Below the pieces are notes generated by a model. That model was given only the letters and a program-made list of their open reading frames with translations, was not told the origin of the DNA and searched no databases. From positions 257,548,001-257,612,000 of the forward strand of contig OZ024741.1 in assembly GCA_964016885.1 (NCBI GenBank): a stretch of 64,000 nt of DNA. The letters run 5' to 3'. Below are positions 18,747 to 55,201 of the stretch, in pieces (the first letter of the stretch is position 1; each line of letters begins with the position of its first letter). Position numbers and translations under genes: made by a program. This DNA is from Eledone cirrhosa. Lineage: Eukaryota.

Positions 18747-18750
<4 letters not shown>
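18330..18750 (+). mobile_element. Penelope-like element, 5' half, split by Dong-like insertions
   Basis: DALHRAGY...WYSPP...FKALDKCFPKSHKYHSIFNRHTIKLSYSTTMNI; homologous to 54360-54540. Confidence 0.8.

Positions 18751-18820
<70 letters not shown>

Positions 18821-18822
<2 letters not shown>

Positions 18823-19326: not shown

Positions 19327-19330
<4 letters not shown>
18821..19330 (+). mobile_element. R4/Dong-like family A, short 3' fragment
   Basis: RLE domain (NRPDLVVVD...IVDVACP...EKINRYQDL...IPIVIGALG...YVLNI) plus 3' UTR, flanked by (AAT)n. Confidence 0.9.
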
Positions 19331-19394
<64 letters not shown>

Positions 19395-19397
<3 letters not shown>

Positions 19398-24109: not shown

Positions 24110-24244
24110 CTTGTTGACAGTAGTACCCGTAATATCCTGCAGCACATCCATTTGGACATCTTCCATTTGTTTTATCACAGTTTTCGTTCTTTGCACAATG
24201 ACAAAGTTTAGTGCAATTTTTACCAAATGTTCCTTGACGACATT
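24110..24244 (-). CDS. EGF-like exon of the same gene
   Basis: 135 nt, AG/GT. Encodes ECRQGTFGKNCTKLCHCAKNENCDKTNGRCPNGCAAGYYGYYCQQ. Confidence 0.85.
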
Positions 24245-26352: not shown

Positions 26353-26369
26353 TTATTATGTTTGTCACT

Positions 26370-27586
26370 ATTATTATTGTTATTGTTCTTTGAGTCTCAG
26401 TCATTGATATTAGTTAACTGGAAAGTTTGTTGAAATGAATATCAAGCCACTACCTGCAGCCTCAGATATTCAGGACGTATCGGAGGGTTCTTGCTGTTCC
26501 CAGCAAGCATGCCTTTTGAAGCGTTCCAAAAAGCGTGAAGGGGCCAATTTTCTTTAACCTCCCTGGAAACTCTTTGAGATAGTACCTAGTGCGCCTATGA
26601 CAATCGGGACCACTTTAAGTCCTGGTATCGGTTAATTTTCTCCCTCTCCTTCTCTTGCACTCTCGTGTCGAATGGGCAGGCCACATCCACAATCAGGCAC
26701 GATCGTTTTTCTTTGTCCAAAACCACCAGGTCAGGTCTATTGTGTTCCAGTTTCTTGACCGTCTGTATCCTAAAATCCCACAGCAACTTCACCTGATCGT
26801 TTTCTATCACCGACTCTGGCTTATGCTCATACCACTTCTCAGAATGTGGTAAATTGTTTACTTTGCATAGGTGCCAGTGGACCACCCTTCCCATCACATC
26901 ATGTCTCCAGCCCTTATAGTGAGTCTGGGCTAGGTGTTTACACTCGGATACAATGTGAGCCACAGTCTCCTCTCTCTCTCTACAGATCCTGCACAGTGAG
27001 CTAGCCACCTCCTTGTAAATATGGTGTTTCAACCACTTCGTTTTGAGGGCCTGCTCTTGCGCAGCCATTAACATTCCTTCTGTAGGCTTTTTAAGGTCTT
27101 CTCTTTTCAACCAGTTTTCATGTCTGTGAATCTCTGAATTCAGTTTTCTCAAAGAAGGTACTATGAAGGGATTTTTCATGAAGGCCGCTCTTTCTCCTTG
27201 TTGTTATTTTCTTCTTGGACATCCCTTGGTCTATTGCCCTCTCCTTCAGTACAGTTCTGAGCATTGGCTCCTTACTATCAGTCACGTATTTGTGTAGGTT
27301 GCTTTTCTCCATCTGAACACAGTCCTCTATGCTGATAAGACCTCTTCCACCCTCAGATCTCCTTAAGTAGAGTCTATCGACATCACTCCTCTTGTGGAAC
27401 ATGTTGTAGATAGTCAATAGCTTCCTAGTCTTCCTATCCATTTCTTTTTGTTCAGCAACATTCCATCTCAGAATTCCCGCACTGTACCTAATAATAGACA
27501 CAGCTCGAGAATTTACTGCACTTATGGCATTCCTACTGTTCAGATGTGACTTTAATACGCTCCTTACTCTCCGAATGTATTCAGAT
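26370..27586 (-). mobile_element. R4/Dong-like family A, diverged subfamily, truncated pseudo-copy
   Basis: C-terminal thumb, CCHC and RLE, with a frameshift near 27118 and a deletion near 26612. Same 3' UTR type; (TAT)n on both sides. Confidence 0.9.
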
Positions 27587-27593
27587 CTTATCA

Positions 27594-27625
<32 letters not shown>

Positions 27626-27627
27626 AG

Positions 27628-30600
27628 TTGCATTTATCTTGCTTTATGTTCATACGAGTTATCACCAAGTCACAACCAGTGACCTCAAGAGACAACAAGG
27701 TCCGCCATGTTCAAGAAAGAACATACATACTCACACATGCATCTTTAGTGTTTAGACTTGTGATGTACTTATATTGACAGAATCTTCCTTAGTATATGAG
27801 CAGTTCCCATTAGTACTATCTTTTGTATTTCTCCTATACGCGGGTTTCCTGGGATTTGCGATAAGTTATCATTAGACCCCTTAGGTATCATTCCCAGAGC
27901 GCCTACAACCACTGGTATTGTTTTAGTTCTCAATTTCCACATTTTTCCAATTTCTATCTCCAGGTCCTTATACTTGCTCAATTTTTTAAATGTTTTTATA
28001 GATACATTCTTGTCTATTGGAACAGACATATCAATTAGCAGGCATACCCTCTTTTTAAAGTCCTTCAATATTATATCAGGTCTATTTGCATCTATTTTTC
28101 GGTCTGTTTGGATGCTAAAGTTCCACAAGATTGAGATGGGAGGTGGTTGATGCTCTCACCAATTCTTTTGATGGGGCAGGTCAAAATGCTTACACATTAT
28201 CCAATGTATGTATTGTGCAGCTCTGTCATGCCTGTTTAGGTATTCGGTTGGAGCTATAGGACTGCACATTGAAATTATATGGTCAATGGTCTCTGGTTGT
28301 TTTTTGCATACACGGCATAATGGGCTGCATCCATTTTTTATTATGTTGGCTTGGTAATTTTTTGTTGGCAGACACTGATCTTGTGCTGATATAATCAGTC
28401 CTTCAGTCTCCGATTTCAGTCCAGAGAATGCCAACCACTGATGGGTTAAAGTTTTGTCAACATCAGGATTGTTAGCTCGCTCTGGGTATTTTCCATACAG
28501 AGGCTTTTCTTGCCATTTCTTAGCCAGTTTCTGTAGCAGTTCTTTCTTTGCAGTTACTTTTACCTGCTTTGCTTTTTCTGTGTTTTCCATTTCAGCAGTA
28601 AATGGGACTTCTGAAATTTGTAGTCCATTACTGTATCTTTGTGCATCTTTTGTAATGGAATATGATCTTTTGATGCTTTCGTGTTTCAAAACGAGTTTGA
28701 TCATGCAATCATGTGATTCCCTTAGATATGTAGATAATCCAATTGTTGCAGTTTTCAACGCAATGTCTAACTGGATTAACCCACGTCCTCCTTCTTTCCT
28801 AGGGAGATATATTCTATCTATATCTGCATGGTTAAGAATTTTCGAATTTTTGTATCGAGCCTACGGATCTCTGTGCTTGACCAGTTGATGACATTGTAAC
28901 TGTAGGTTACTACTGGTATGGCAAGCGTGTTTATGGCATCGATCCTATTCCTTGCATTCAATTCCGTTCTTTAGATTGCCCTTACTCTGCGGTAACATTC
29001 CTTCCTTATCCTTTCCCTCATTGTCGAGTGCTTGATTCCGTCTCCTTCACAAACACCTAGATATTTGTAAGTTTTTTCTTGATTAAGTTCTCTTATCACG
29101 TTCCCCCGGTCAAGATTAATGTCTGAACTCTTCAGCAGCCTGCCTCTGGTGAACGTTGCTTTGGCGAATTTATCTAGTCCAAACTCCATTTTAATGTCAT
29201 CACTGAACTGCTCCACAGTGGATAATAGCCCTTGCAATTGTTCATCATTTTTTGCAAATAGTTTCAGGTCATCCATGTAGAACAAGTGATTAATGGTTTT
29301 GTCATAGACTTTATATCCATGTTTTGTTTCATTGAGCATTTTACTTAATGGTATAAGTGCGATGCAGAATAAAAGCGGTGATAAAGAGTCACCCTGAAAA
29401 ATTCCACAATTAATATTAACTTCTCCAGCTTCCAGTGATTTTGTTTCACTATTCAAAAGGGGTGTCATTTTCCATGTCTTCATACTGAATGACAAAAACC
29501 TCCTGACAACGGGGGATATTTTGAAAATCTCTAAACATTTTTCAATCCAACTGTGTGGCAAACTATCGAATACTTTTTTATAATCTATCCAAGCAATCGA
29601 TAGATTTTTGTGTCTATTATGACAATCTTCCAGTATCATTTTGTTAACCTGAAGCTGATCCTTACAGCCATATGAGCCTCGTTTACACCCTTTCTGCTCA
29701 ATGGGAAATAGGTCATTTGTTATCAGGTGGTCATATGTGTATTCAGTTAGGACTGATGTTAAAATTTTATACATTGAGGTCAAGCAAGTTATCGGTCTGT
29801 AACTTTTGGGATTGTTTGTCTCATCATTCTTCGGAAGCAGGAATGTAATACCGTTAACTAGCCATGATGGTATCTTTTCTGGCTCCTTAACTATTTCATT
29901 GTAAAGTTGGGCTAACAGCTCATGAGACTCTGTGAAGGCATTTATCCAAAAGTTTTGTATTTTGTCTTTTCCTGGGGATTTCCATTTGCTGGTTTTTCTT
30001 AGAGCCAAGCGCAACTGTTCAACTGTTATATTTTCCCATATTTGTTCCTCAAGGTGAGCTGTATCTTTCATTTGTCTGTCTATCCATGGGGCATGTATGT
30101 TATGAACTTTTTCTTCGGCCCAGATCTTTTACCAGAATTCTTGCACTTCCTCCTTCGGTGGTATTGATTTAGCAGTTATTGTTGACTTACTAATTTTTCT
30201 GTAGAAGTTTCTTTGGTTGTTTTTGAACATATTATTGTCCTTATAGAATCTAGATCGTTTTTCAAAGCGCCTTATACGAGCAGCTTTGGCCGACACTTTT
30301 TGCTTGATTATTTCTATCAGCATGTCTATGTCACTTGTTGATTTTATACTGTACTTTTTTTTCAATTTTCTAAGTTTAGTTTGTTTAACATGTTCACCTA
30401 CTTTATAGTTTGTTAAAATTTCTATGTCAGATCGGAGAAGGTTTATTTGGCGATTGATGTTCTCTTGCCAAGTAGATTTCTTGTGGAAATTCCTTTGTTT
30501 TTTCATCTTCACTCCACATAAGTGAGTGGTGACTTTAGCCGATGCATAATAGAGATGATTTAAATCAGTAATGTTTAGTTTGTTTGTGATGATAATGTTT

Positions 30601-32523
30601 TTGAGAATTATGTTAGTCTTGTGTATTATCTTCTGGTTCTGTTTGGAGTTCTGGATCTTAGGGAGGGTGTCTCGTTGCCCATGTCAGATTCTTTCATTTT
30701 CATCCATTCGATCATAATTTCATCCTTCAAGTTGGCAAGTTCATTCTCATTCATTTCTTTATCATTTACGATCGCATTATTTTCATTTGGAGTTTCATCT
30801 TGAGCATGCACTCCCTCCACTTTTTCGATCCTTTCTTTTATTTGTTCTGTTGCCAGTGATTCCGCCCCAACCCTGGGATTCGAAGTGTTACAATTTACCT
30901 CGTTTTCGCTGACACTTGTTTCATTTTCCCTTCGCTGACTTTGTGCTAATAGCGTGATCTGATCAATTTCTATATCAGTTAGTAACTTTTTTCTTACAAT
31001 ATTTCTTCGTATATTGGCTAGTTTGTTACTGTCAATATAGCCTCTGTTTTCGGGATGTTTCTTTTTCCAGTTGATATATGTCTGTTCTGTATTCGATGTA
31101 TTTGATGGGTAGTACATGGCAGTGTAGAAAGCCTCAAGGACTTCTTTATTATCTTCCCTTGACCATTTTTCTCTCTTTTTCTTTGAATTTCTTGGTGGTG
31201 AGCATGGAGGGCCAACAGTAGGAGTATTCCGGTTATGGGAGGTCTCCAGCTCCGAAGTGATGGGAAGGTTTGAACCATTAGCGGATTTTTCGACCCCAGT
31301 CTGGTTTCTCTCTGAGGGACGCGGCCCTTTTTTACCCGGATGACGGCCGATCCGGTATGAGATTTTATCATTAGACATTTACTTTATTTTGACGCGTTTT
31401 ATCCTTATCCGCCAAGGGGTAATCATTTCGTGTTACCACTTCTAGAACGAGTGTCAACCAAGACTAGAGGGGTCGTTCTCCCCTAGAGACACGGCTATTC
31501 CCCGCCGGCCGCCATCCCGGTATTTCTTGGTCACGGGGTTTTCTTTTTGTTGTTTTTTTTAAATTGTTATTATCATGAGTGGTTCCTTAATGTGAGCATT
31601 GCGTGGCTTAAGAATGAAATTATTAATAATTGTCTCCACTCCAGGCACAAAGCCAGCAATCACCCAGTGCATTACAATAATATAATATACTTTTTGCTGA
31701 AGTTGCCTGTTATTGTTGTTGGCTATGTCGGTGGTGGTGATGGGGCTTTTTATATTGTTGGTGAGGAAGGGGTGAGCCAGCAGTGCCATAGTTGTTGATG
31801 TTGACGTTTGGCCGGTGGCCAGGTCACTAAGTCAATCTATTTATATCTTTTGCGAGCCTCTCCCTTGTCTAGTGATACCGCCACCTTCCCCTTTCTCTCT
31901 CAAGTTAACAGGGGAATAGTGGTGGTAGCAATGAAGGAGTGGTGGCGGCGGTGATGGGATAGTGGTAGCAATGATGGATGGAATGGTGGCGGCGGTGGCG
32001 TTGTCGTTACTGAGTTTTGTGATATGTAGTATCTATGAGTTTGTCGCGTATGTTTAATATATATTGTGTTGACATATTCCCGTAAAATTGGAATTAAACA
32101 TTTTGTTAAAACTTGAGACAATAATAATAGTAATTATTATTATGATGCTGGGATTGGTGGTGGTGGTGGTGAAATTGCCGTTATCTGGCTGTTATATTTA
32201 GTGTGATGGGGTAGGTGGTGTATCAAGTTTCTGGTGTTGGTGAAATTGCTGTTATTTGGCTGTTCTATATAGTGTAGACAGAGGGTGTTTTCTTCCATTT
32301 ATAAACATTTTCTTTTTTGAATACAAAATATATAATACAAAATTGAATATTTGAGCGATATAACAATATAATATGGATCCGAAATTTTATGGGACTTGAT
32401 TCGGTGGTTTATGCAACATTTGTACTAAGAATTGTTATTTCACAATTGATTTAAATATGTTAAAAATCAAAAACTTACGGGAGCGATTTCATGACATTCT
32501 ACCACCTCGTGCGTCTTCTTCCC
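27628..32523 (-). mobile_element. R4/Dong-like family B, full-length but inactivated copy
   Basis: Colinear with 35166-40051. The ORF is broken into pieces (30626-31378, 30129-30512, 28971-30071, 28156-28758, 27769-28128) by stops and small deletions. Confidence 0.92.
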
Positions 32524-32576
<53 letters not shown>

Positions 32577-35145
32577 TCGGACGCACATATGTGAAGACGT
32601 ACAAGTCTGCGGGGGAAAAGGTTCGTAACTTTAAGCTGTTTTAAAGTATCATTTTTTGTATTTTCTTGTCGTTAACGAAACATAAGGTACCCACCTTGGT
32701 TTCAAGGAAGGGAGACCTCTTAATATTTGAGCTTTAAGCCCGAATATTCAGATTTATTTTTAAAAACTTCGAAAAAAAATCGCTTCCCCACCAAAACAAA
32801 ATATGGAAATTTTCGACCTTGAAACGGTAAACAACGTTCAGGTCAAAAGTTCAAAAGTAGCCACTGTAGATCTCACCACAACTACAACTACTACAGACAT
32901 ATCTGTCGACCATTCAACTGAATGTGTAGGCAAAACACAAAAGCTACCTTCTGTGTTACGACCAGTATCATCTCAAAACGACACGACCACCACCACCACC
33001 ACAACAACAACAACAACAACAACTCAGAACAGCAACGACAATAGCCCCGACAGCTTCAATGTAAGCACGGATGGCGGTGGCAACAGCCACAACAAACAAA
33101 ACAACAACAACAACAACAGCAAGAACGACAACACCAACAACAAGAGCAACAGATGCACCACCTTTGCTGCAGCAGCAGCAAAAATAAAGCGCTTATTGAA
33201 TATTGATATTAGCGATAAAGACGAACAGTTGGCCCAGGCGTGGAGGTTAATTAAACGGGAGAAGTCCTGGGCAAACCTGACCATCCCGGACGGGGTAATA
33301 GAGGCCATGCAAACGGTGTACTTTCGATGAATTTCAGTGAGACACGCAAAGTGGAACTCTCCAGCCAAGCAGAGGTCGAGGCTGCTTTGGAGTGCATCGG
33401 AAGTGACATAAAGCAAAAGTATAAAGCAAGGGCCAAACAGTTCGGTACCATCTCGGTACTGTTCAAAACCGAGGCCCTTGCTATCAAACACTCGGTGACC
33501 CCCTGCAGAACGGAACGTATTATCATGCACCCGTCCTACATGGGAAAAAGGACAGTAAAAGTGCGCATTCCCAGGAATGAACATATGGTGGCTCCTGGGA
33601 TACGTAATCGAGGAGGGGACAGACACTACCCTCCTGGATATCAAAAGGACAGAGAGAGAAGACTGGTCCGGAATGGATTTGGAGATTCTTCTCCAAATGA
33701 AACCAGAGGACATGAACAACATCCCGGATTTTGCCCGCCTGCAGGACGGGACAACAATCCAACTAATCACTGACGTAAGAAGGCCGCACTGCTTCGTCTG
33801 CGGGGAAACAACGCATCTGCAAGCCTTCGGCCCTCAGCGCACCTATTCAGATCACAAATTTGTGATCTATATGGTCGAACTAGATAAAACTCGTAGGTTG
33901 GGAGCGGGTTACTGGAAGCTGAACATGTCATTTTCGGCACGTAAGGCTTACAAGGACCGAGTCAACAATTTAGTTAAGCAAAGGTTGACAGGGGGGATCA
34001 TCAACAACAGATGGTGGGAGGCTCTCAAAAGAGAGATTAGAGTAACTTCGATAGAGTTCAGCATAGAACTAGCGTTAGAGAAAAATAGAAAGGAGGGGGA
34101 GCTGGTAGATAGGTTAGACGAGGCTATTTGTAGTGGCATTGCAACTGACGTGCTAGCGGCGAGAATAGCATTAGACCATTTCTTCAATGCGAAACACGAA
34201 GGTTGCATTGTCTGAGCTAAGGCGCATGCGCTGAGAAACGAGGGAACCAAAGCTGTTCGATGGGCCCGCGTGACGGAGGCGCAGCGTGGTAATAAAACAA
34301 CAATTCGGTCTTTGGCGGACTGAGACGGACACGAGATAAACGATTCCATGCGGATGTGTGAGGCCTTTCGCCAGCACTTTGCTCGGTTGTTCGGGGAGAG
34401 TCGCGAGTTAGAGAGACTAGCGGACTTCAGTCCCTATATTGACGGCTTGCCGCGCATCTCGACGGTCGACGCTGAGCGCTGCGAAGGCGTTGAGCGCTGC
34501 GAAAGGCCGATTACTTCAGCCGAAATTCAGGACGTCCTTGTCGGCTGCATGAGGCGCAAGTGACACGGTTTGGATGGCCTTCCCTACGAGCTTTACGTAA
34601 ATATGCTAGACTTGTTCTCCGATCTCCTCGAAGCACTCTACTGCAACTGGCAGCAGAATGGGAGTATTCCCAGTTCTGTGAGCAGAGGAGTGGTGACACT
34701 GATAAGGAAAGACGAGAACAAGAAGGATACACTAGACAACTTCAGGCCCATAACTCTGCTCAACACAGAGTTTAAGATTTTGGCCCAGGTGTTAGATTTT
34801 CTAAAAGGTGGATGAATGTGGCGAGAATGGCTCGTGTGACTGGGCCTACTCTGACCATGCGCCTATAGGCTAGCTAACTTGAGGAGAGGGTTGCTGTCCC
34901 TGGGTGCCCTAGAAGCGCAGGGTGGTTCAGGATTGGTGGGGTACCCGAGTCACCACAGGGTCGTCCACCCCCTATCGGGGAATTTATTTTGTTATATTTA
35001 TGCATAGTTTATTTTATATTTTTATATCTTCATTGTTAAATTAATCTTGCCATTGTGCACTTTTACTCGACCTATTGTAAACCCCCACTGACCCTGTTTT
35101 GTATTGTCCCCTACATGTCGGCCCTTGTGGCTAATAAATGAAATC
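32577..35145 (+). mobile_element. L1/Tx1-clade LINE, internally deleted, with both ends present
   Basis: ORF1 from 32803 with zinc knuckle CFVCGETTHLQAF, then a jump to the APE end (YSDHK...GYWKLN), RT start (GLDGLPYELY, NFRPITLLNTEFKILA) and a 3' UTR with AATAAA followed by (ATT)n. Confidence 0.85.
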
Positions 35146-35165
35146 ATTATTATTATTATTATTAT

Positions 35166-38100: not shown

Positions 38101-40051
38101 TGAGTGGTGACTTTAGCCGATGCATAATAGAGATGATTTAAGTCAGTAATGTTTAGTTTGTTTGTGATGATAATGTTTTTGAGAATTATGTTAGTCTTGT
38201 GTATTATCTTTTGGTTCTGTTTGGAGTTCTGGATCTTAGGGAGGGTGTCTCGTTCCTCCATGTCAGATTCTTTCATTTTCATCCATTCGATCATAATTTC
38301 ATCCTTCAAGTTGGCAAGTTCATTCTCATTCATTTCTTTATCATTTACGATCTCATTATTTTCATTTGGAGTTTCATCCTGAGCATGCACTCCCTCCACT
38401 TTTTCGCTCCTTTCTTTAATTTGTTCTGTTGCCAGTGATTCCGCCCCAACTCTGGGATTCGAAGTGTTACAGTTTACCTCGTTTTCACTGACACATGCTT
38501 CATTTTCCCTTCGCTGACTTTGTGCTACTAGCTTGATCTGATCAATTTCTATATCAGTTAGTAACTTTTTTCTTACAATATTTCTTCGTATATTGGCTAG
38601 TTTGTTACTGTCAGTATAGCCTCTGTTTTCGGGATGTTTCTTTTTCCAGTTGATATATGTTTGCTCTGTATTCGATGTATTTGATGGGTAGTACATGGCA
38701 GTGTAGAAAGCCTCAAGGACTTCTTTATTATCTTCCCTTGACCATTTTTCTCTCTTTTTCTTTGGATTTCTTGGTGGTGAGCATGGAGGGCCAACAGTAG
38801 GAGTATTCCGGTTATGGGAGGTCTCCAGCTCCGGAGTGATGGGAAGGTTTGAACCATTAGCTGATTTTTCGACCCCAGTCTGGTTCCTCTCTGAGGGACG
38901 CGGCCCTTTTTTACCCGGGTGACGGCCGATCCGGTATGAGATTTCATCATTAGACATCTACTTTATTTTGTCGCGTTTTATCCTTATCCGCCAAGGGGTA
39001 ATCTTTTCGTGTTACCACTTCTAGAACGAGTGTCAACCAAGACTAGAGGGGTCGTTCTCCCCTAGAGACATGGCTATTCCCCGCCGGCCGCCATCCGGTA
39101 TTTCTTGGTCACGGGGTTTTCTTTTTGTTGTTTTTTTTTTTTTTGTTTTTTTTAAATTGTTATTATCATGAGTGGTTCCTTAATGTGAGCATTGCGTGGC
39201 TTAAGAATGAAATTATTAATAATTGTCTCCACTCCAGGCACAAGGCCAGCAATCACCCAGTGCATTACAATAATATAATATACTTTTTGTTGTAGTTGGC
39301 TGTTATTGTTGCTGGCTATGTCGGTGGTGGTGCCGGGGCTTTTTATATTGTTGGTGAGGAAGGGGTGAGCCAGCAGTCCCATAATTGTTGATGTAGACGT
39401 TTGTCCGTGGCAAGGTCACCAAGTCAATCTATTTATATATTTTGCTAGCCTCTCTCTTGTCTAGTGCTACCACCACCTTCCCTTTTCTCTCTCAAGTTAA
39501 CAGGGGAATAGTGTCAGTAGCATTGAATGAGTGGTGGCGGCGATGATGGATGTGGTGGGGTGGTGGCAGCGGTGGTGTTGTGGTTACTGATATAGTATCT
39601 ATGAGTTTGTGTTCGTATGTTTAATATATATTTTCATTATATTTTGTGTTGACATATTCCCGTAAAATTTGAATTAAACATTTTTTAAAATTTGAGACAA
39701 TAATAATAGTAATTATTATTATGATGCCGGTGAAGTTGCCGTTATATTTAGTGTGATGGGATAGGTAGTGTATCAAGTTTCTGGTGTTGGTGAAATTGAA
39801 ATTGCCGCTGTTCTATATAGTGTAGACAGAGGGTGTTTTGTTCCATTTATAACCATTTTCTTTTTTTGAATACAAAATATATAATACAAAATTGAATATT
39901 TGAGCGATACAACAATATAATATGGATCCGAAACTTTATGGGACCTCATTCGGTGCCTTTATGTAACATTTGTGCTAAGAATTGTTCTTTCACAATTGAT
40001 TTAAATATGTTAAAAATCAAAAAACTTACGGGAGCAATTTCGTGACGTTCT
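35166..40051 (-). mobile_element. R4/Dong-like family B, essentially full-length element
   Basis: About 1.1 kb leader, one intact ORF and about 140 nt of 3' UTR, flanked by (TAT)n tracts. Confidence 0.93.
35307..38957 (-). CDS. 1216-aa RT/CCHC/RLE protein of the family B retrotransposon
   Basis: N-terminal R4-type KWSREDN...AFY motif, YRPITCL, GIFQGDSLSP, FYMDD, CRVC...H...C, NRPDII...IDMSVP...EKLSKY and IPVVVGALG. Confidence 0.95.
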   Translation of the reverse strand: MSNDEISYRIGRHPGKKGPRPSERNQTGVEKSANGSNLPITPELETSHNRNTPTVGPPCSPPRNPKKKREKWSREDNKEVLEAFYTAMYYPSNTSNTEQTYINWKKKHPENRGYTDSNKLANIRRNIVRKKLLTDIEIDQIKLVAQSQRRENEACVSENEVNCNTSNPRVGAESLATEQIKERSEKVEGVHAQDETPNENNEIVNDKEMNENELANLKDEIMIEWMKMKESDMEERDTLPKIQNSKQNQKIIHKTNIILKNIIITNKLNITDLNHLYYASAKVTTHLCGVKMKKQRNSHKKSTWQDNINRQINLLRSDIEILTNYKVGEHVKQTKLRKLKKKYSIRSTCDIDMLIETIKQKVSAKAARIRRFEKRSRFYKDNNMFKNNQRNFYRKIGKSTITAKSIPPKEEVQEFWEKIWAEEKVHNIHAPWIDRQMKETAHLEEQTWENITVEQLRLALRKTSKWKSPGKDKIQNFWINAFTESHELLAQLYNEIVKEPEKIPSWLVNGITFLLPKNDETNNPKNYRPITCLTTMYNILTSVLTEYTYDHLITNDLFPIEQKGCKRGSYGCKDQLLVNKMILEDCHNRHKNLSIAWIDYKKAFDSLPHSWIEKCLEIFKISPVVRRFLSFSMRTWRTTLLLNSETKSLEAGEVNINCGIFQGDSLSPLLFCIALIPLSKMLNETKHGYRVYDKTINHLFYMDDLKLFAKNDEQLQGLLSTVKQFSDDIKMEFGLDKCAKATFTRGKLLKSSDINLDRGNVIRELDQEQTYKYLGVCEGDGIKHSTMRERIRKECYRRVRAILRTELNARNRIDAINTLAIPVVTYSYNVINWSSTEIRRLDTKIRKFLTMHRMHHPKADIDRIYLPRKEGGRGLIQLDIALKTATIGLSTYLRESHDWMIKLVLKHESTKRSYSITKDAQRYSNGLQISEVPFTAEMENTEKAKQVKVTAKKELLQKLAKNWQEKPLYGKYPERANNPDVDKTLTHQWLASSGLKSETEGLIISAQDQCLPTKNYQANIIKNGCSPLCRVCKKQPETIDHIISMCSPIAPTEYLNRHDRAAQYIHWIMCKHFDLPHQKNWWEHQPPPIIEKDHISILWNFSIQTDRKIDANRPDIILKDFQRRVCLLIDMSVPIDKNVSIKTFEKLSKYKDLEIEIGKMWKLRTKTIPVVVGALGMIPKGSNDYLSQIPGNPRIGEIQKIVLMGTAHILRKILSI

Positions 40052-40069
40052 ATTATTATTATTATTATT

Positions 40070-41500
40070 ATTATTGTTCTTTGAGTCTCAGTCATTGATG
40101 TTATTTACTGGAATGTTTGTTGAAATGAATATCAAGCCACTACCTGCAGCCTCAGATATTCAGGATGTATCGGAGGGACCTTGCTGTTCCCAGCAAGCAT
40201 GCCTTTTGAAATGTTCCAAAAATCGGGGCGGCTCCAATTTTCTTTAACCATCCTTGGAAACTCTTTGAGATAGTACCTAGTGCGCCTATGACAATCGGGA
40301 CCACTTTGACTTCATGGCAGTTCCAAATCCTTTTTACCCCCCACTGGTATCGATTAATTTTCTCCTTCTCCTTCTCTTGCACTCTTGTGTCGAATGGGCA
40401 GGCTACATCCACAATCAGGCACGACCTTTTTTCCTTGTCCAAAACCACCAGATCAGGTCTATTGTGTTTCAGTTTCTTGTCCGTCTGTATTCTGAAATCC
40501 CACAGCATCTTCACCTGATCGTTTTCTATCACTAACTCTGGCTTATGCTCATACCACTTCTCAGAATGTGGTAAATTGTTTACTTTGCATACGTGACAGT
40601 GGATCACCATGCCCATCACATCATGTCTCCAGCCTTTATAGTGAGTCTGGGCTAGGTGTTTACACTCGGATACAATGTGAGCCACAGTCTCCTCTCTCTA
40701 CACACACACAATGAGCTAGCCTCCTCATTGTCAATATGGTGTTTCACCCACTTCGTTTTGAGGACCTACTCTTGCGAAACCATTAGCATTCCTTCTGTAG
40801 CCTTTTTAAGGTATCCTCTTTTCAACCAGAACCATGTCTGTGGATCTCTAAATTCAGTTTTCTCAAAGAACGTACTATGAAGGGATTTTTCATGAAGGTT
40901 GCTCTTCCTCCTTGTTGTTATTTCCTCTCTGGACATCCCCTGGTCTAATGTCCTCTCCTTCAGTACAATTCTGAGCATTGGCTCCCTACTATCAGTCACG
41001 TATTTGAGTAGGTTGTTTTTCTCCATCTGAACAAGGTCCTCTATGCTGATAAGACCTCTTCCACCTTCAGATCTCCTAAAGTAGAGTCTATCGACATCAC
41101 TCCTCTTGTGGAACATGTCGTAGATAGTCAATAGCTTCCTAGTCTTCCTATCCATTTCTTTTTGTTCAGCAACATTCCATCTCAGAATTCGCGCACTGTA
41201 CCTAATAATAGACACAGCTCGGGGATTTACTACACTTATGGCATTCATACTGTTCAGATGTGATTTTAATACGCTCCTCATTTATTAATACCAAATTCCA
41301 TACATATATCATTGTTGAAAATACGGACAGTGTCAACAAGTACATCCAACTCCTTCCCACTCTTCCCGAAGAGCTTAAGATCGTCCATGAAGAGGAGGTG
41401 ATTGATGGTAAGCTCTCCTTTTCCCAACTTGTATCCTGCTCTCACTGTTCCTAGTATAATGGTCAGGGGTATCAGGGCAAGGACAAACAACAGAGCGTAC
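40070..41500 (-). mobile_element. R4/Dong-like family A, diverged, truncated and internally deleted
   Basis: Fragments LLFMDDLKLF, RSVLKSHLN..., RPDLVVLD...YILNI with frameshifts, plus the 3' UTR. Confidence 0.9.
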
Positions 41501-41514
41501 AAATATTATTATTA

Positions 41515-44500
41515 TTATTATTGTTATTGTTATTCCTTGAATCTCAGTCATTGATGTTGGTTAACTGGAAAGTCCGTTGGATTGAATATCAAGCCACTAC
41601 CTGCAGCCTCAGATATTCAGGACGTATCGGAGGGTTCTTGCCGTTCCAAGCAAGCATGCCTTTTGAAGCGTTCCAAAAAGCGTGAAGGGGCCGATTTTCT
41701 TTAACCATCCCTGGAAACCTTTGGAGATAGTCCCCAGTGCGCCTATGACAATCGGGATCACTTTGACTTCATGGCAGTTCCAAATCCTTTTCACCTCCCA
41801 CTTTAGGTCCTGGTATCGGTTAATTTTCTCCCTCTCCTTCTCTTGCACTCTCGTGTCGAACGGGCAGGCCACATCCACAATCAGGCACGATCTTTTTTCT
41901 TTGTCCACAACCACCAGGTCAGGTCTATTGTGTTCCAGTTTTTTGTCCGTCTGTATCCTAAAATCCCACAGCACCTTCACCTGACTGTTCTCCATCACCG
42001 CCTCTGGCCTATGCTCATACCATTTCTCAGAATGTGGTAGATTGTTTACTTTGCACAGGTGCCAGTGGATCACCCTGCCCATCACATCGTGTCTCCAGCC
42101 CTTATAGTGGGTCTGGGCTAGGTGTTTACACTCGGACACAATGTGAGCCACAGTCTCCTCTCTCTCTCCACAGATCCTGCACAGTGGGCTAGCCTCCTCC
42201 TTGTAGATATGGTGCTTCAACCACTTCGTTTTGAGGGCCTGCTCCTGCGCAGCCATTAGCATTCCTTCTGTAGCCTTTTTGAGGTCTCCTCTTCTCAACC
42301 AGTTCCATGTCTGTGGATCTCTAAATTCAGTTTTCTCAAAGAAGGTACTATGAAGGGATTTTCCCTTAAGGCTGCTCTTCCTCCTTGATGTTATTTCCTC
42401 CTTGGGTATCCCCTGGCCTACTCTCCCCTCCTTCAGTACAGCTCTGAGCATTGGCTCCTTACTATAGGTCACGTATTTGTATAGGTTGTTTTTCTCCATC
42501 TGAACACAGTCCTCTATGCTGATAAGACCTCTTCCACCCTCAGATCTCCTTAGGTAGAGTCTATCGACATCACTCCTCTTGTGGAACATGTTGTAGATAG
42601 TCAATAGCTTCCTAGTCTTCCTATCCATTTCTTTTTGTTCAGCAACATTCCATCTCAGAATTCCCGCACTGTACCTAATAATAGACACAGCTCGGGAATT
42701 TACTGCGCTTATGGCATTTCTGCTGTTCAGATGTGACTTCAATACGCTCCTTACTCTCCGAATGTATTCAGTTCTTAACAATTCCTTCATTTTTTTGTTC
42801 TTTATGCCATCAGCCTCCAGAACGCCCAAATACTTGTATCCTTCCTCAGAGTCAATTTCCTTTATCATCTCACCTGTTGGTATCTGGATCCCGTTACTTC
42901 TGCTCAACCTACCCCTCCTCATCACAATGACTCCACATTTACCAATACCAAACTGCATACATATATCACTGCTGAAAATACGGACAGTGTCAACAAGCAC
43001 ATCCAACTCCTTCTCACTTTTCCCGAAGAGCTTAAGATCGTCCATGAAGAGGAGGTGATTGATGGTAAGCTCTCCCCTTCCCAACTTGTATCCTGCTCTC
43101 ACTTTTCGCAGCATAATGGTCAAGGGCATCAGGGCAAGGACAAACAACAGAGGGGACAGGCTATCTCCCTGGAAGATACCTCTCTTGATCTTCACGCTTC
43201 CCAAGGATACTCCAGTTGATGTCAACTCTGTCTCCCAGGACCCCATACTCCTGCCCAGCAACTCTCTGATGTTATCTGCCACCCCGAAGATCTCCAGGCT
43301 TTTGGTGATCCAGGAATGAGGCACCATGTCAAATGCCTTTCTGTAGTCTATCCATCCCATGGCAAGATCAGTGTGTCTCCTCCTGCAATTCCCCATTACC
43401 ATCTTATCAATAAGCAACTGGTCCTTTGTACCACGTGACTTCTTTCGGCATCCTTTCTGTTCGTCCGGCAACAAGTTGTTTGTGTGGAGGTGATGGTAGA
43501 TTTCCTCAGACACAATGCTCGTCAACAGTTTCCACATTACGGGCAGACATGTGATAGGTCTATAGTTGGTAACATCATTACCCTTGATTCGGTCTTTCAT
43601 TATCAGAACTGTGGTACCTTTTGTCAACCACTCTGGCACCTCACCCGACACCAAGCAGTCATTGAACATGGCCGTCAGCTTCGGGTGGAGGGATGTTAAA
43701 TGTTTAATCCAATACCCCTGCACACCATCTGGGCCTGGTGATTTCCAGTTGGTTAGTTTTTTGGCTTGCCCCTTAAGAGTTTCAACTGTGATACTCAAAT
43801 CAGTCTGTTGCTGTGCCTGCTCACCGATCTCCCTCTGTACTGTCTCAATCCACCCTGCCTGGGCATTGTGTCTAACATCCTGCTCCCATATTCCTCTCCA
43901 GAATGTTTTAGCTTGTTCCGCCCCAGGGATCAAGTCGGTGCCTCTTTCTTTCCCCTCAAGCTGTCCAAACAGCATCTTCTGGTTGTTGTCGAACATGCGG
44001 TTCTGTTTATACTGACTGACTCTGTTCTCGTATCGCCTGATTTTGGCACTCTTTGCTACAATGCGTTGCTTCAATTCCTCTATGATAATATTTAGCTTTT
44101 TACTCCTAGTTTTGTATTTTATTTCCAGTCTATTTTTAGTGCCTATGTTTTTTAGTGTCCCATTCAGTAGTGACTCAAGCTTTCCTATGTCATTTCTCAT
44201 TTCCCCGATTTGCCCACTCAGTCGCTTCTTCCACCACGGCTCTGCTCTTTCTTGTCTGTTGTTTCCTCTCGCTTTTATACCAAGTAGTTTCCTCACCGTA
44301 TTTGCTGTTGCTTTGAGGATATTGTTGCACTGGTGAAGACTCCTCGCCTCAAGGTATGGGATGACTTTGTTTACCTTAGCTGTTGTTTCTTTTAACTTTT
44401 TCCTGTCTACAAATCTTAGGTTCATAGGTCTCCCACTATCATTGTTCAACTCATCTACCACTAAATTTAGGATGTCAACCGAATCTTGTCCTAGCCCGTC

Positions 44501-46044
44501 AGCATTCATCTCCTCAGTGGCCGTATCTCTGTTCCAGGTATTATTTATCTCAGTATTCAGATCATTGTCTGCTTCGGGTGGTTCCTCCGCTCTCAGGACC
44601 TCCTCACCTTCATTTCCCGCCGGCTCGCTTGTCTGGCATACTACACCCGCCATCTCCAAGCCATTCTCTCTGCTCAGTTCCTCCAGTTCCAGCTCGCTTA
44701 TCCACCCATTAGTTCTTATTACCCGAGCCTGCCCGGCCAATTTTTGTTCATCTAATTTAAATAAACCAATCTCGTTCCAGATGTTATGCATCCGTCTCCT
44801 GTAGCCCCTCTCCTTGGGGTTACTTTTCAGGTAGCATTGCATAACAGTTCTATTCAATTCTTTCGTCCAGTTGGTTCTGGCCCCTTTCCTTCTTCTTCTT
44901 CCTCCAACATCAGCAGTATTTCGTTGACAGTCAGGTTCCTGCTGCTGAGCCAGGGGGCACCTGTTGGGTGAGAGTCTGTCACATGACGTTCTAGTCTCCA
45001 TTTCACCGTTATTCGAACTGTTTATGTTCGATATTTAAACACTCTTATCGAGGATTGGCGAATGTATGTTTACATAGCCATCTGTGGATCCGCCATCCCA
45101 CTTGGCCCTTGTGTGGCATTATCACCACGCTGTATACGGACACACATAAACAAACAAACACACGGGCAGAAAGGGCCCCAAAAATGAATAAGCATAAGTT
45201 TCATTGTAATGTAGTATTCGAATGTCTGACTTAGTTTTTGTTTTTTAAGTTTTACTTTTTCCCCCCTCTTCTCTGTCCGTCCGCCTGCCTCTCTCTTCAT
45301 TCTTATTTTCTTTACGTTTTGGGGGTTTCTTTTTTTGTTTTTGTTTTTCTCTGTTTTTCTCGTTTTTTACTGTTGTTGCTGTGCTGCTTTTGTTGTTTAT
45401 TTTTTCTTTTTTCTTTTGAGTCTATCTATATATTTTGATGCCTTCCTCTTTTTTAGCAGTAGGGATTCTATAATGTGGTGGCAGCAGCCAGCTAAAAGAA
45501 GAAGTGGGAGACTGGCGGCGGTAGCGATACTGAGACAGTGGTGGTGGTGATGTCGATACCGAGGCAGTGGTGGCGGTGATGTGACCGTATTACTGTAGCG
45601 ATGGTGCTGTAGCGGTGGCAGCAGTGAAGGAGTGAAGGGGTGGTGGCGGCGGTGATGGGATAATGGTTGTAATGATGGCCGTAGTGATCGGTGGTGGTTT
45701 AGTGTACACAGGTGATAGGGTGGGTGGCGTATCTAGTTTCTGGTGTTGGTGAGTTTGGCTGTTCTATATAGTGTATACAGAGGAGGAGGGGGGGGGGGGT
45801 TCTTCTTCCATTTATAGCCATTTTCTTTTTTGGATATACAGTGTACAATACAAAGTTGAATATTTGAATATTTGAGCCTTATAACAATATATTTTGGGTC
45901 CGAATTTTTTGGGGCTCAAGCCGGGTGCTTTACGTAGCATTTGTACTAAGAGTTGTTATTTCACAAATGGTTTAAATATGTTAAAAATTCAAAACTTACG
46001 GGAGCGATTTCATGACCTCCGTCACCTCGTGCGTCTTCTTCCCT
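41515..46044 (-). mobile_element. R4/Dong-like family A, full-length element
   Basis: About 1.04 kb leader, intact ORF and short 3' UTR, with (TAT)n on both sides. Confidence 0.93.
41609..45001 (-). CDS. 1130-aa RT/CCHC/RLE protein of the family A retrotransposon
   Basis: WTKELNRTVMQCY...RGYRRRMHNIW...EQKLAGQARVI (R4/Dong N-terminus), RGIFQGDSLSP, FMDD, CCHC and RPD..D..EK. Confidence 0.95.
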   Translation of the reverse strand: METRTSCDRLSPNRCPLAQQQEPDCQRNTADVGGRRRRKGARTNWTKELNRTVMQCYLKSNPKERGYRRRMHNIWNEIGLFKLDEQKLAGQARVIRTNGWISELELEELSRENGLEMAGVVCQTSEPAGNEGEEVLRAEEPPEADNDLNTEINNTWNRDTATEEMNADGLGQDSVDILNLVVDELNNDSGRPMNLRFVDRKKLKETTAKVNKVIPYLEARSLHQCNNILKATANTVRKLLGIKARGNNRQERAEPWWKKRLSGQIGEMRNDIGKLESLLNGTLKNIGTKNRLEIKYKTRSKKLNIIIEELKQRIVAKSAKIRRYENRVSQYKQNRMFDNNQKMLFGQLEGKERGTDLIPGAEQAKTFWRGIWEQDVRHNAQAGWIETVQREIGEQAQQQTDLSITVETLKGQAKKLTNWKSPGPDGVQGYWIKHLTSLHPKLTAMFNDCLVSGEVPEWLTKGTTVLIMKDRIKGNDVTNYRPITCLPVMWKLLTSIVSEEIYHHLHTNNLLPDEQKGCRKKSRGTKDQLLIDKMVMGNCRRRHTDLAMGWIDYRKAFDMVPHSWITKSLEIFGVADNIRELLGRSMGSWETELTSTGVSLGSVKIKRGIFQGDSLSPLLFVLALMPLTIMLRKVRAGYKLGRGELTINHLLFMDDLKLFGKSEKELDVLVDTVRIFSSDICMQFGIGKCGVIVMRRGRLSRSNGIQIPTGEMIKEIDSEEGYKYLGVLEADGIKNKKMKELLRTEYIRRVRSVLKSHLNSRNAISAVNSRAVSIIRYSAGILRWNVAEQKEMDRKTRKLLTIYNMFHKRSDVDRLYLRRSEGGRGLISIEDCVQMEKNNLYKYVTYSKEPMLRAVLKEGRVGQGIPKEEITSRRKSSLKGKSLHSTFFEKTEFRDPQTWNWLRRGDLKKATEGMLMAAQEQALKTKWLKHHIYKEEASPLCRICGEREETVAHIVSECKHLAQTHYKGWRHDVMGRVIHWHLCKVNNLPHSEKWYEHRPEAVMENSQVKVLWDFRIQTDKKLEHNRPDLVVVDKEKRSCLIVDVACPFDTRVQEKEREKINRYQDLKWEVKRIWNCHEVKVIPIVIGALGTISKGFQGWLKKIGPFTLFGTLQKACLLGTARTLRYVLNI

Positions 46045-46046
46045 TA

Positions 46047-46086
<40 letters not shown>

Positions 46087-46100
46087 ATTATTATTATTAT

Positions 46101-48720
46101 TGGCGACCTACGTAGGAAATCGTATCATCGTGAGCTCCGCAAAGGTTTGTTGTTTTCGTTTGTTTAAAATTGGCATTTATGAAAAATTGTTGTTGTTAAC
46201 TGTTTATAAAGTCACAAAATTTGCTTTCGGAAAAGGACACTCAAAAAGATTGGGGCCTTGAGCCAAAAATTTAAACTTTTATAATTATCAAGCAAAAGAT
46301 TTCTTTGAAAAAATCATAGACGACTCAGAGCTACACCAAGCAGTTGAGAGCCTTCCTTACAAACTAACACCTCACACCAACACCACCATTGTAAATATTA
46401 CTAGGTTTGCCAACACTAAAAATATATAAGCAGTTGCAATAATTTAAATTTGTCTCATGCAGACATTCATTTCCCGCCATTACCAATGACTGCAGGTGTT
46501 GAAGCCGCCACCACCCCCACCAACACCACAGCGACAACAGAAACAAAAGAAAAAATTAAATTATCTCGTGACATCGAAATGGATTCACCCAGAATGGACT
46601 CTTCCACACCGAACACCACTGACGCCACCACCATCACAACTGAAACTAAAAATAACAATAACAAAAATAACAATAACAACAACAGCAACAACAACAATAA
46701 GAATAACAATATCGTGTCATTTTCCAAAGCAGCCAAAAAGTGCGAAGCAATCCAAGTAACTCAGGAGGAAATAGATAAAGCCAAGAGATTGGTAAAGAAA
46801 GATGGGTACAGGGTCAGCCTCCCCCCCCCCAAATAAAATGGAGCATCGGCGCCTATGCACCGTGTCTTATCGGACAATTAACATAAAATCGCGCCGAGTG
46901 GAACGGGTATCCGAGTCCCGAATCCAAAAAGCTTTGGGACATGTGTGGGCAAAAAGCCCACATCAGACGTGGGCAGAAATATGGAACCGAGGCCAGAGAG
47001 CACTCCATGGCCCCATTAAGAAGCGACGACTACACACTCGTCCCAAGCTATTGTGGCCAGAGACTCGTAAAGATCAGGGTGACCCACGTTCCACCGGCCA
47101 TCGAAATTCCCTGGCTAATGGCTGCCGTCCTCCCCGGCATCGAAGCCAACACCAAAATAATAGAAATAGCAAAAGAAAAGCAGGAGAACTGGTCCGGATC
47201 TGGGATGGAGCTCCTGATCGAAGCGGACCAAAAAAGCATTGAGGAGATCCCAGAGGTAATAGACCTCACTGACAGCAGCCACCTCACCGTAATCGTCGAG
47301 GGTAGAAGGCCTAGGTGTGTCGTTTGGGGTGAAGGAACCCACCTAAGGGCTTTCTGCCCACAGGCTAAAAAGTTGAGGCCACCTCTCTTATCCACCCCAG
47401 TGACTCAACCATCAACACCACCAGCAGCAGAAATGGCAGCAACAACTGTAGCAGCAACAAGCCCAGCAACAGTAGCAAAACCACCACCACCACCCAACGC
47501 ACCAGAACTAGCACCAGCGCCTACACCATCCACCACGCCACAACAAAAACCAACGCCTATGAAGGATTTTCCACCTTCCGACCTATCGCAACTGGAGACA
47601 GATCGTGACGACGGGGAGTGGGAAACGGTATCAGGAAAAATGAAAAAAAAGAAAAAAAAAGACAAAAAAGAAAAAAATCCCCTTCCTTCCCCCTCCAAAA
47701 ACAAAATACAGAAGGAAACAAATAAACTATCAAACAAAAAAGTTAGGACAGCTATGCCACCATCCACACCAGCATCACCAACCCCATCACCACAAAAACC
47801 AACACCATCACCATCATTAACCCCAACACAACCATTACCAACACCACAAATGTCATCAAAAAGCGAAACAGAAACAAACTCACATCAAACGCAAACAAAA
47901 CAAAACAACCAAAACGATACACACTACACAGCATTAAATTTGAACACGGTGGATTGGCAGTATCGGTAGAAGGTCGGACGCCATGCTTTCCAGCATAGTT
48001 ACGTCCCTTTACGATCTGAGTTCAAATCCCGCCGAGGTTTACTTTGCCTTTCATCCTTACGGGGTCGATAAAATAAAGTACCAGTAATGTACTGGGATAA
48101 TTGCTGGCCTTGTGCCAAAAGTAGAAACAATTAAATTTGAACAACAACCAACTATTACACTACATCCAACACAACACCAGCATCACAGAAAAAGACTACA
48201 CAACACCCCAAAAGTTCACACCACCTCCACACATACAAATCACTCGCATCACACAGAAAACGTACATGACACTAAAACAAAAATTCCTCAAAGACATCGG
48301 AGACTTCCGACAAGCACTCTCCAGGAGGATTTATAAGGACATCCTTACGGAGGAGGCCACAAGCAGTGAAAAGGATGGAGAAACCATCCTTCCTCTACGA
48401 GAAGTAAGGTAAGTGGTCTTTCCCATCTTTTCCACTCCATTTCAACATGATCTCACTCAGAATAGGCAGCATAAATGAGCGTGGCTTGGGGTCATCATGG
48501 AAGCAGGGACACCTGCTCAACGACCTGAGGTCACTAAACATAGATGTAGTGGCCATCAGCGAGACCAGAATCTCCGAAGCACGGGCCTTCGCAAGGATCT
48601 TCGGCGTCTACGATGTGTACGCATCTCCCAGCCGTCCTGGATGGGGGGGGGGATTGCTGTGCTTTTTCGGAGTGGTTTGGATCTCGCCATACGGGCCATC
48701 TTCCTGAAAGCAGAAGGTAA
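46101..48720 (+). mobile_element. L1/Tx1-clade LINE, 5' part (ORF1 and start of the APE domain), degenerate
   Basis: Frameshifted ORF1 with knuckle CVVWGEGTHLRAFC and a Pro/Thr-rich tail. ORF2 starts at about 48447 (LRIGSINERGL...DVVAISETRI) and is truncated near 48720. Confidence 0.85.
47948..48130 (+). mobile_element. SINE family 1, full length with a 14-bp target-site duplication
   Basis: ATTAAATTTGAACA at 47933-47946 and 48130-48143. The empty site is visible in the paralogous LINE at 61343-61356. Confidence 0.95.
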
Positions 48721-49332
48721 GTATCCGTACATTTTACTTCTTTTGCATGTTTATTTATTTTCATCTTCACTCTTCACATATTATACCATTTTATATTACA
48801 TTAGATGTAATTTGTTTATTTATCTATCTATCTATTTATTTATTGATTTATTTATTTATTTATCTAGCTAACAATTTTTTATGTATTTTTTATATAGTTT
48901 TTTCATTTTTTTTCTTCATATATTTCTATATATCTATCTTTATGTCTATTTACATTTATTCACGTATTAACGTTTATTCATCTCTTAGCTCCTCTATCTT
49001 CTTCTCTCCATCATAGTTCTACTTATGTTTATCTATCATTCTCATTTATTTGTCCCTCCACATTCATCTTCTCTCTGTCTTTACTTATGTCTGCCTTTCA
49101 TATTCTATACATCCTTTTTCTCTTCTTTCTCTTTTCTTTTCCCTTTTTCTTCTTTCTTCTTCCTTTCCATTCTCTCTTTACTATATATTCTTCCTTCTTC
49201 TTTCTCCTTGCTTTCCATTCTCTCTTTACTATATATATCTCCCATCTTCTTTTCTGTCTATATCTTAATTATTAATATTATTATTGATGTTGTAATTTGA
49301 ATTTGTAAATTTGACGGTTGCATATATGTTTT

Positions 49333-52329: not shown

Positions 52330-52464
52330 CTTGTTGACAGTCGTTCCCGTGATATCCTGCAGGACATCCATGTGGACATTTTCCATCTTTTGTATCACAG
52401 TTTTCGTTCCTGGCACAATTACAATGTTTTGTGCAATGTTTGCCAAATCTTCCTTGACCGCATT
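52330..52464 (-). CDS. EGF-like exon of the same gene (most 5' exon seen)
   Basis: 135 nt, AG/GT. Encodes ECGQGRFGKHCTKHCNCARNENCDTKDGKCPHGCPAGYHGNDCQQ. Confidence 0.85.
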
Positions 52465-54362: not shown

Positions 54363-55201
54363 ATTCTATTTATATTTTGTGCTATGTTCATTGTAGTAGA
54401 GTAGGATAGTTTTATAGTGTGTCTGTTAAAAATAGAGTGGTATCTGTGGGCTTTAGGAAAACATTTATCTAGTGCTTTAAAGAATAGCTTTGCTAAATGT
54501 GTTTTAACGCTTAATGAGAATGGGAGAGGGTACTAAATAATATTTCTAGTTCTAGTTTTTTTATTTAGTTTTTTTTAAAGTTAATACTAGGATGATATGT
54601 CATGTTATTGTTATCTATGTATTTAATTCTCTTTGAGTATCCTGCTCTAAGTAAAGCTTCATTATAATATTCAGCCTTATCAGCAAAAATATTTTTATTA
54701 GCGGAGATGCCTGAAATCCGTTGTTGGACGCTATTGACAATAGTGTTTTTAAGAATTCTAGGATGATTAGAATTGAAACTTACATAATTTAGATTTTCGT
54801 TAATTTTATGGAATGGATAGTAAAGACCTGTGCTAAGGTTTAAGGTTATATCTAAGAAGTTAACGATTTTGTAGTTATTCTCTATTTCTAAATTAAGATT
54901 GTAGTTGTTGAATAATTGTATTATGTATTTTCTGTTTCTATTAATTTCACTATTTTTATGGTTTTCAATTAAAAGCAACATATCATCACGATATAAACCT
55001 CCGGTCATCTCTGGCATTTTTCTATGCAGTACATTATTAATAAATAATCCAACAAGGTCTGTTAGTTGCGCCGAGTCAGATGATCCCATAGTGATATCAA
55101 AATTGTTTTTTCTGTCGGCTCTTGTCCAGATCTTATCCCTTCATTATCCAAAGAAAACTTGAACCATTAAGGTTATGTCAAAATTCATGAAACACACTTC
55201 G

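Follow-up and report, generated by a model that had tools for sequence, protein, structure and literature searches.

Introduction

Dong retrotransposons take TAA microsatellites as their target (PMC3812793), and families of the Tx1 clade are specific for other simple repeats, namely Kibi for (TC)n, Koshi for (TTC)n and crocodilian elements for (TTCC)n or (TTTC)n (PMC4494074). In this study we describe an array in the 3.0-Gb genome of Eledone cirrhosa in which Dong-like and Tx1-like long interspersed nuclear elements (LINEs) are chained through (TAA/ATT)n tracts. The array occupies positions 26369-48722 of a 64,000-nt stretch of contig OZ024741.1 (assembly GCA_964016885.1, positions 257,548,001 to 257,612,000 of the forward strand), hereafter the window, to which coordinates refer. 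We consider it highly probable that this chain of five Dong-like and two Tx1-like elements, running in opposite fixed directions, grew by repeated target-primed insertion into (TAA/ATT)n, each insertion splitting one tract into two usable ones. This reading draws on direct observations of the layout of the array, the domain content of its elements, the tracts at both ends of genomic copies, their fixed polarity and the tracts that stand empty in another copy of the locus.

Several described systems resemble parts of this arrangement. Dong of Bombyx mori, DongAg and DongBg, of the R4 clade, share with the two Dong-like families found here (A and B) a TAA target and a single open reading frame (ORF) with reverse transcriptase (RT), CCHC finger and restriction-like endonuclease (RLE). 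Families A and B differ from known Dong in forming two lineages, 36% identical in protein, with a common 330-nt leader, and in building long mixed chains with another clade. In Octopus vulgaris, Dong-R4 elements are reported as abundant and recently active, with five families and 1129 recent insertions (PMC13282606). The Tx1-like elements share with Kibi, Koshi and the crocodilian families their clade, an apurinic/apyrimidinic (AP)-like endonuclease and microsatellite specificity, and differ from them in their (ATT)n target, in their invertebrate host and in that an RLE element uses the same target from the opposite strand.

Pairs of families that use one target are also on record. SART and TRAS occupy one Bombyx telomeric repeat in opposite orientation and form arrays (PMC10088271); both are telomeric R1-clade elements with AP endonucleases, whereas here the endonucleases are unrelated and the microsatellites dispersed. 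Keno and Utopia, elements with AP endonuclease (APE) and RLE, converge on U2 small nuclear RNA genes (PMC4640811), where they share the same 3' flank and so the same direction, unlike the opposite directions and the target regenerated at each junction in the array. Tandem growth with a surviving target, as in the array, is described for R1, which forms tandem copies by double insertion (PMC5932611). The crocodilian short interspersed nuclear element (SINE) SINEU is likely moved by Tx1-Mar and has the same target preference (PMC4494074); the SINE found here differs in its ATT target, and its link to a partner rests on about 24 terminal letters. TAA targeting by Dong and opposite-facing pairs such as SART and TRAS are already known, and our literature search, whose coverage stopped short of Repbase, supplements and the target list in Fig. 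3 of PMC4494074, found no (ATT)n-specific Tx1 element and no Dong-Tx1 chains.

Seven elements joined by simple-repeat tracts

An earlier sequence-only reading of the window had described five co-oriented Dong-like copies and two Tx1-like copies separated by seven simple-repeat tracts. The tracts are present where that reading placed them and seven elements adjoin them, against a chance background of 0.26% (a tract within 30 nt at 28 of 10,856 control positions). Both copy numbers and the shared orientation of the Dong-like LINEs hold, to which we add that the Tx1-like LINEs face the opposite way, the former lying on the minus and the latter on the plus strand. The plus-strand order is A', B1, Tx1a, B2, A'', A, Tx1b, and each element is preceded by a (TAA/ATT)n tract. 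The features are listed below, with the presence of each element at a second copy of the locus, which is described in the next section.

26369-26378: (TAT)3 tract, left edge of the array, on the tail side of A'
26379-27593, minus strand: A', Dong-like, 5'-truncated, decayed, 90% identical to A; present at both locus copies
27594-27623: (ATT)10 tract, with A' (5' end) to its left and B1 (3' end) to its right
27624-32523, minus strand: B1, Dong-like family B, full-length, ORF fragmented; present at both locus copies
32524-32574: (TTA)17 tract, B1 and Tx1a head to head
32575-35145, plus strand: Tx1a, Tx1-like LINE, both ends kept, two internal deletions; present at both locus copies
35146-35166: (ATT)7 tract, left-hand remainder of the tract that B2 interrupts
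35167-40050, minus strand: B2, Dong-like family B, ORF intact, lacking about 22 nt of the 5' end; in the window copy of the locus, not in the second copy
40051-40075: (TAT)8 tract, right-hand remainder of the tract that B2 interrupts
40076-41503, minus strand: A'', Dong-like, 5'-truncated and internally deleted, about 89% identical to A; present at both locus copies
41504-41522: (TAT)6 tract
41523-46044, minus strand: A, full-length Dong-like family A, ORF intact; a different, truncated A stands here in the second copy
45712-46044, minus strand: leader at the 5' end of A, matching the B1 leader (32203-32523) at 78% identity
46047-46101: (TAT)18 tract, interrupted once, with the 5' ends of A and Tx1b facing each other across it
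46102-48722, plus strand: Tx1b, Tx1-like LINE reduced to its 5' part (leader, ORF1 and the start of ORF2), 3' part missing; present at both locus copies
47947-48129, plus strand: SINE within Tx1b; not in the second locus copy

Eight additional letters stand between A'' and its tract, and the right end of Tx1b is cut off and has no tract.

A second copy of the locus with empty sites

A second copy of the locus lies on the same contig, 4.23 Mb away (261.77-261.87 Mb) and in the same orientation, and diverges from the window by 0.60% (298 substitutions in 49,331 positions). The similarity extends at least 10 kb on both sides, reaching about 97 kb upstream; six of eight probes placed farther out fell in one short-unit satellite and the other two in other tandem repeats. 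The satellite has a unit of about 15 nt, extends at megabase scale to either side of the locus and is possibly centromeric.

A', B1, Tx1a, A'' and Tx1b are common to both locus copies. The remaining sites show states before and after insertion: where the window has B2 between tracts of 21 and 25 nt, the second copy has an unbroken (ATT)18; its Tx1b is without the SINE and has a single target; and an unbroken (ATA)25 takes the place of a small chain that lies outside the array in the window, as follows.

18749-22289, plus strand: small chain of two 5'-truncated A copies (99% identical to A) with three (TAA)n tracts, and (GAA)10 at the first junction

At the site of the full-length A, the second copy has a 1.69-kb 5'-truncated A. 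The two differ at five sites, one of which separates genomic subgroups; they carry different tail variants and share no private change. The simplest reading would be two independent A insertions into one tract, although recombination after the arrival of a new full-length copy, or else a deletion, may also have produced this state. The array measures 13,998 nt in the second copy versus 22,354 nt in the window. B2, the full-length A, the SINE and the small chain postdate the split of the two locus copies, and A', B1, Tx1a, A'' and Tx1b are older.

We give an even chance to the second copy being the other haplotype, kept in the assembly, in which case B2, A, the SINE and the small chain would be insertion polymorphisms in one animal; a segmental duplication is the alternative. 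The substitution rate, the shared orientation and the satellite on both sides agree with a haplotype, as does the second-copy allele at 34103, which is absent from one run of restriction site-associated DNA (RAD) sequencing, X4 (0/576), and present near half of the locus-specific depth in runs X5 and X6. The second-copy allele at 34137, however, is listed in none of the three runs, and in X5 the depth is doubled and additional variants make up between a quarter and a third of the locus reads, suggesting possibly more than two copies.

Tracts at the junctions of genomic copies

Junctions were sampled genome-wide from the best-scoring 30 of 40 scored hits per end, drawn from 143-2257 candidates, with the window and its second copy left out. 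For Tx1c, a younger related family from neighbouring loci without a copy in the window (1462 candidates), 25 hits were used and the query locus was likewise omitted. A tract adjoined the 5' end in 28/28 cases for B, 28/30 for A (both misses have a tract behind a short repeat of the start of the element), 24/28 for Tx1a, 27/28 for Tx1b and 24/24 for Tx1c, giving pooled values of 56/58 for Dong, 75/80 for Tx1 and 131/138 overall. Of the Tx1a 3' ends, 26/28 adjoined a tract, and (ATT)n flanks each of the 20 full-length Tx1c copies at either end. Mostly non-TAA sequence at 5' junctions was the outcome that would speak against the sequence-only reading; the Dong flanks gave the opposite result, and together with the unbroken (ATT)18 at the empty B2 site they bear out its proposal of Dong-like, TAA-targeting elements that grow by splitting tracts. 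For Tx1 families, a target preference has been taken to apply where more than 20% of flanks agree (PMC4494074), a proportion that the families examined here exceed.

Polarity was equally regular. Read in the direction of the element, the ends of Dong copies adjoin (AAT)n and those of Tx1 copies (ATT)n. Beyond the tract, 112 of 166 ends matched Dong, Tx1 or the SINE. Five matches ran against the expected direction, four of them low-complexity and one a related SINE that actually faces the expected way; once false matches are removed, another element stands beyond the tract at 108 of 166 ends, and none of these has the wrong polarity. Across the genome, chains are the rule, and the array is a long example rather than a special locus.

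Neighbours that start internally were less uniform. Of 44 Dong cases, 30 remained once 14 internal deletions were set aside, and 23 of these have a tract; of 53 Tx1 cases, 35 were internal deletions, and a tract adjoins 11 of the remaining 18. The Tx1 families are themselves tract-specific, on the opposite strand, and somewhat less strict than Dong. A SINE is associated with the tract as well. At the finest scale, (GAA)n runs occur at 5/28 B and 1/30 A junctions, some Dong junctions carry short repeats of the first letters of the element, and the starts of Tx1b and Tx1c have the fixed phase (ATT)n|G.

These junctions bear on an account in which the tracts are tails only: the elements would make their own (TAA)n or (ATT)n tail and insert loosely in AT-rich DNA, and chains would persist through tolerant selection. 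Both kinds of element do end in a repeat, the tract is missing at 7/18 truncated Tx1 and 7/30 truncated Dong junctions, and the locus sits among satellite arrays, where insertions may persist. This account nevertheless leaves the tract on the 5' side of nearly all sampled copies unexplained, as well as the fixed phase at the starts of Tx1b and Tx1c, and it is largely refuted by the long tracts already there at the empty sites; we regard it as very improbable.

A chain arising from tandem duplication, unequal exchange or read-through co-mobilisation of blocks appears at least as remote. In its favour, B1 matches B2 at 94%, A' and A'' are relatives of A, and three of ten A copies elsewhere are followed by the same other Dong variant. 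Yet these three followers start at different letters, all junctions and truncation points differ, the layers are of different ages and the empty site of B2 is clean; moreover, no identical compound junctions at several loci were seen, outside of any systematic search for them.

The Dong-like families

The open frame of B2 (35307-38957) encodes 1216 amino acids (aa), and that of A (41609-45034) spans 1141 aa from stop to stop, with the first methionine at residue 12. Both families have a single long ORF with a non-LTR (long terminal repeat) reverse transcriptase (RVT_1 only) and no AP endonuclease. A CCHC finger and a PD-(D/E)xK restriction-like endonuclease (RPD..D..K..Y) are recognisable as C-terminal motifs, at 952 and 1037 in A and at 1029 and 1113 in B. 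The best solved relatives are R2 (E 7e-30), ahead of L1 (1e-14), the alignment to the R2 nuclease region being weak. In a quick tree that did not include named Dong, R4 or Rex6 sequences, A and B fall in separate subgroups, B near insect proteins and A near a shrimp protein. The Dong-like identity of both families appears supported, on the strength of anatomy and target rather than of a tree. The sequence-only reading had taken two ORFs as intact and as perhaps active integrases: both are open, but the predicted proteins are reverse transcriptases with a restriction-like endonuclease, and the age of the copies and the empty sites suggest activity.

Family A is very young. All 40 scored hits are 100% identical over 281 nt, and all ten fetched copies are intact, 99.7-99.9% identical, with ORFs of 1136-1141 aa. 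A horizontal origin of A, hinted at by a third-position GC content (GC3) of 0.54 versus 0.39 in B and by the shrimp neighbour in the quick tree, found no further support and was set aside.

The first 330 nt of A and B are 78% identical despite the divergence of their proteins. Bombyx Dong has a self-cleaving ribozyme like that of hepatitis delta virus (HDV) at its 5' end (PMC3774820), a typical though not strictly defining feature. The shared leader gave no Rfam match, stable fold or descriptor hit for an HDV-like ribozyme, the descriptor having been run without a positive control. That the leader holds an internal promoter is a guess. As to whether the Dong leader could derive from Tx1, the A leader, compared with each Tx1 leader, scores above 300/300 shuffles, whereas for the B leader the scores are reached by 82, 21 and 9 of 300; a leader profile search between Dong and Tx1 gave E values of at least 0.9, and tests over 500 nt gave no clear signal. 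In addition, a 46-nt piece of SINE 3' end sits in the 5' untranslated region of family B (31630-31680, 39225-39270) and moves with that family.

The Tx1-like families and the SINE

The Tx1 copies of the window are broken, Tx1a retaining 2.57 of about 5.85 kb after two internal deletions, and the anatomy was therefore read from Tx1c, of which 20 full-length copies are about 97% alike. One Tx1c copy has a 1203-aa ORF2 with AP endonuclease (PF03372), RT (PF00078) and zf-RVT zinc finger (PF13966), and Tx1c has the layout of the Tx1 clade, with two ORFs and an ORF2 consisting of an N-terminal AP-like endonuclease, RT and a C-terminal zinc finger. The window copies are 70-92% identical to this copy across their retained ORF2 parts. 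L1 ORF2p is its top match among solved structures, and the sole named protein among seven homologs is 'Transposon TX1 149 kDa protein', at 31% identity. Anatomy and target, rather than a tree with named Kibi and Koshi sequences, point to membership of the Tx1 clade. Tx1b and Tx1c are 92% identical in ORF2 and the 3' end, while their 5' 2 kb match in patches only.

At least one further Tx1-type 3' end, like Tx1c, occurs in chains elsewhere in the genome and not in the window. A third copy of Tx1b is present at 60365-64000, 96% identical to that of the array and lying inside a GIY-YIG (Penelope-like) remnant.

The SINE within Tx1b has a 14-nt target-site duplication starting with ATT. Across the genome, ATT comes next at 76 of 82 distinct SINE 3' ends, and copies outside tracts have duplications of about 14-19 nt. 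The last 24 letters match one Tx1-type 3' end with an end-anchored score of 19, reached by none of 5362 control windows; the corresponding score is 8 against Tx1b and Tx1c (reached by 27/5362 controls) and negative against Dong, and an unanchored local test did not place Tx1 ends first. The matching 3' end came from Tx1-type LINEs in 10 of 14 rows, some of which are the same locus twice. From these terminal letters and target sites, the SINE was likely moved by a Tx1 enzyme. Its head, judged by eye against a box consensus, is presumably tRNA-like. At another locus (L175:2405-2786), two tandem SINEs occupy the site in Tx1b that is also used by the window SINE, a recurrent hot spot.

It could be argued that Tx1 has a loose preference for an ATT motif, set by pairing of the RNA tail with the primer and not by the endonuclease, and that tracts made by Dong merely concentrate the motif. 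This view fits SINE copies that lie at an ATTA or GTTA motif alone and show clear duplications, and it fits the shorter, imperfect tracts of the older Tx1a copies. We consider it unlikely, in light of the perfect tracts on both sides of all 20 young full-length Tx1c copies and at all 24 Tx1c 5' ends, and of the report that the endonuclease mainly determines the target in the Tx1 group (PMC4494074).

Proposed mechanism and wider implications

Target-primed reverse transcription is an established process, from which a mechanism for the growth of these chains can be proposed. In the case of Dong, the restriction-like endonuclease would act on the (ATT)n strand, with complementary DNA primed on RNA ending in AAU-type units; in the case of Tx1, the nick would be made in the (AAT)n strand by the AP-like endonuclease, with priming on RNA ending in AUU units. 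The opposite nicked strands and RNA ends would give Dong and Tx1 their fixed opposite directions. Each element would finish inside the same tract, leaving tract on both sides. The fixed (ATT)n|G starts of Tx1b and Tx1c suggest a precise second nick, slippage while the Dong 5' end is joined may produce the (GAA)n runs and short repeats of first letters, and the SINE would borrow the Tx1 enzyme, as its duplications of about 14-19 nt starting with ATT suggest.

Several observations weigh against this reading. The junction samples, of 24-30 best hits, favour young, query-like copies, and the nicked strand and the length of duplications inside tracts are unreadable from pure repeats. Truncated Tx1 copies are less strict, as the 7/18 without a tract attest, and many SINE copies lie at ATTA alone, such that the Tx1 enzyme may prefer a short motif for which tracts are dense targets. 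The third copy of Tx1b (60365 onward) has a 5' junction without a tract and has lost its 3' end. Finally, a whole ORF2 was found in none of 12 Tx1b and 8 Tx1a stretches, and only one of ten fetched family B copies, picked by a B1-type 5' end, has an ORF above 1100 aa.

A wider reading, to which we give slightly less than an even chance, joins two ancient Dong lineages with an undescribed Tx1 lineage, specific for (ATT)n, and the SINE as its client. Together they would make up a single target system that renews itself: the two strands of one microsatellite would be cut by endonucleases of unrelated kinds, and the same tract would have been hit again within 0.6% divergence (B2, the second independent A, the small chain). 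The chains would also serve as a swap yard for 5' leaders, and such swapping would explain both the 78%-identical leader of families A and B, whose proteins are 36% identical, and the 92%-identical ORF2 of Tx1b and Tx1c under unrelated 5' halves.

The locus likely adds a new target to those of the Tx1 clade. A matched RLE and APE pair on one simple substrate allows direct comparison of strand choice and specificity, and family A supplies an R2-group enzyme, directed at a common microsatellite, in many intact and nearly identical copies. Chains would explain the swelling of introns and transposable-element hotspots in a genome of this size. Furthermore, with repeats on either side of each insertion, Dong activity may escape short-read callers; in O. 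bimaculoides, Dong was scored as not recently active by short-read insertion calling (PMC9115989), a score that may have arisen in this way.

The probable host intron and neighbouring features

The array is bordered by two exons resembling epidermal growth factor (EGF) repeats:

24114-24243 (approximate), minus strand: EGF-like host exon, downstream end of the intron, AG/GT ends
52334-52463 (approximate), minus strand: EGF-like host exon, upstream end of the intron, AG/GT ends

Both exons likely belong to one transcript, which would place the array in a single 28.09-kb intron; Pfam support for the EGF-like exons is weak (E 0.008, in one of three exons). The self-perpetuating landing pad of the sequence-only reading, said to have inflated one intron to about 28 kb, stands in that the array makes up 22,354 of the 28,090 nt between the exons; it does not stand as a property peculiar to this locus, the habit being genome-wide, and the single transcript is inferred. 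The figure of 28 kb applies to the window copy only, because the second copy is without the exon unit at 24114-24243.

The host gene (12492-52463, minus strand) consists of tandem 130-nt EGF-like exons with recent duplications of exon units, and its exon at 52334-52463 differs from the second copy at 15 positions in about 110 nt, far over the 0.6% background. Decayed Penelope-like/GIY-YIG remnants lie at 1900-4600, 17370-18090, 54600-55140 and 56874-57683, the last recognised by Pfam and the others by eye.

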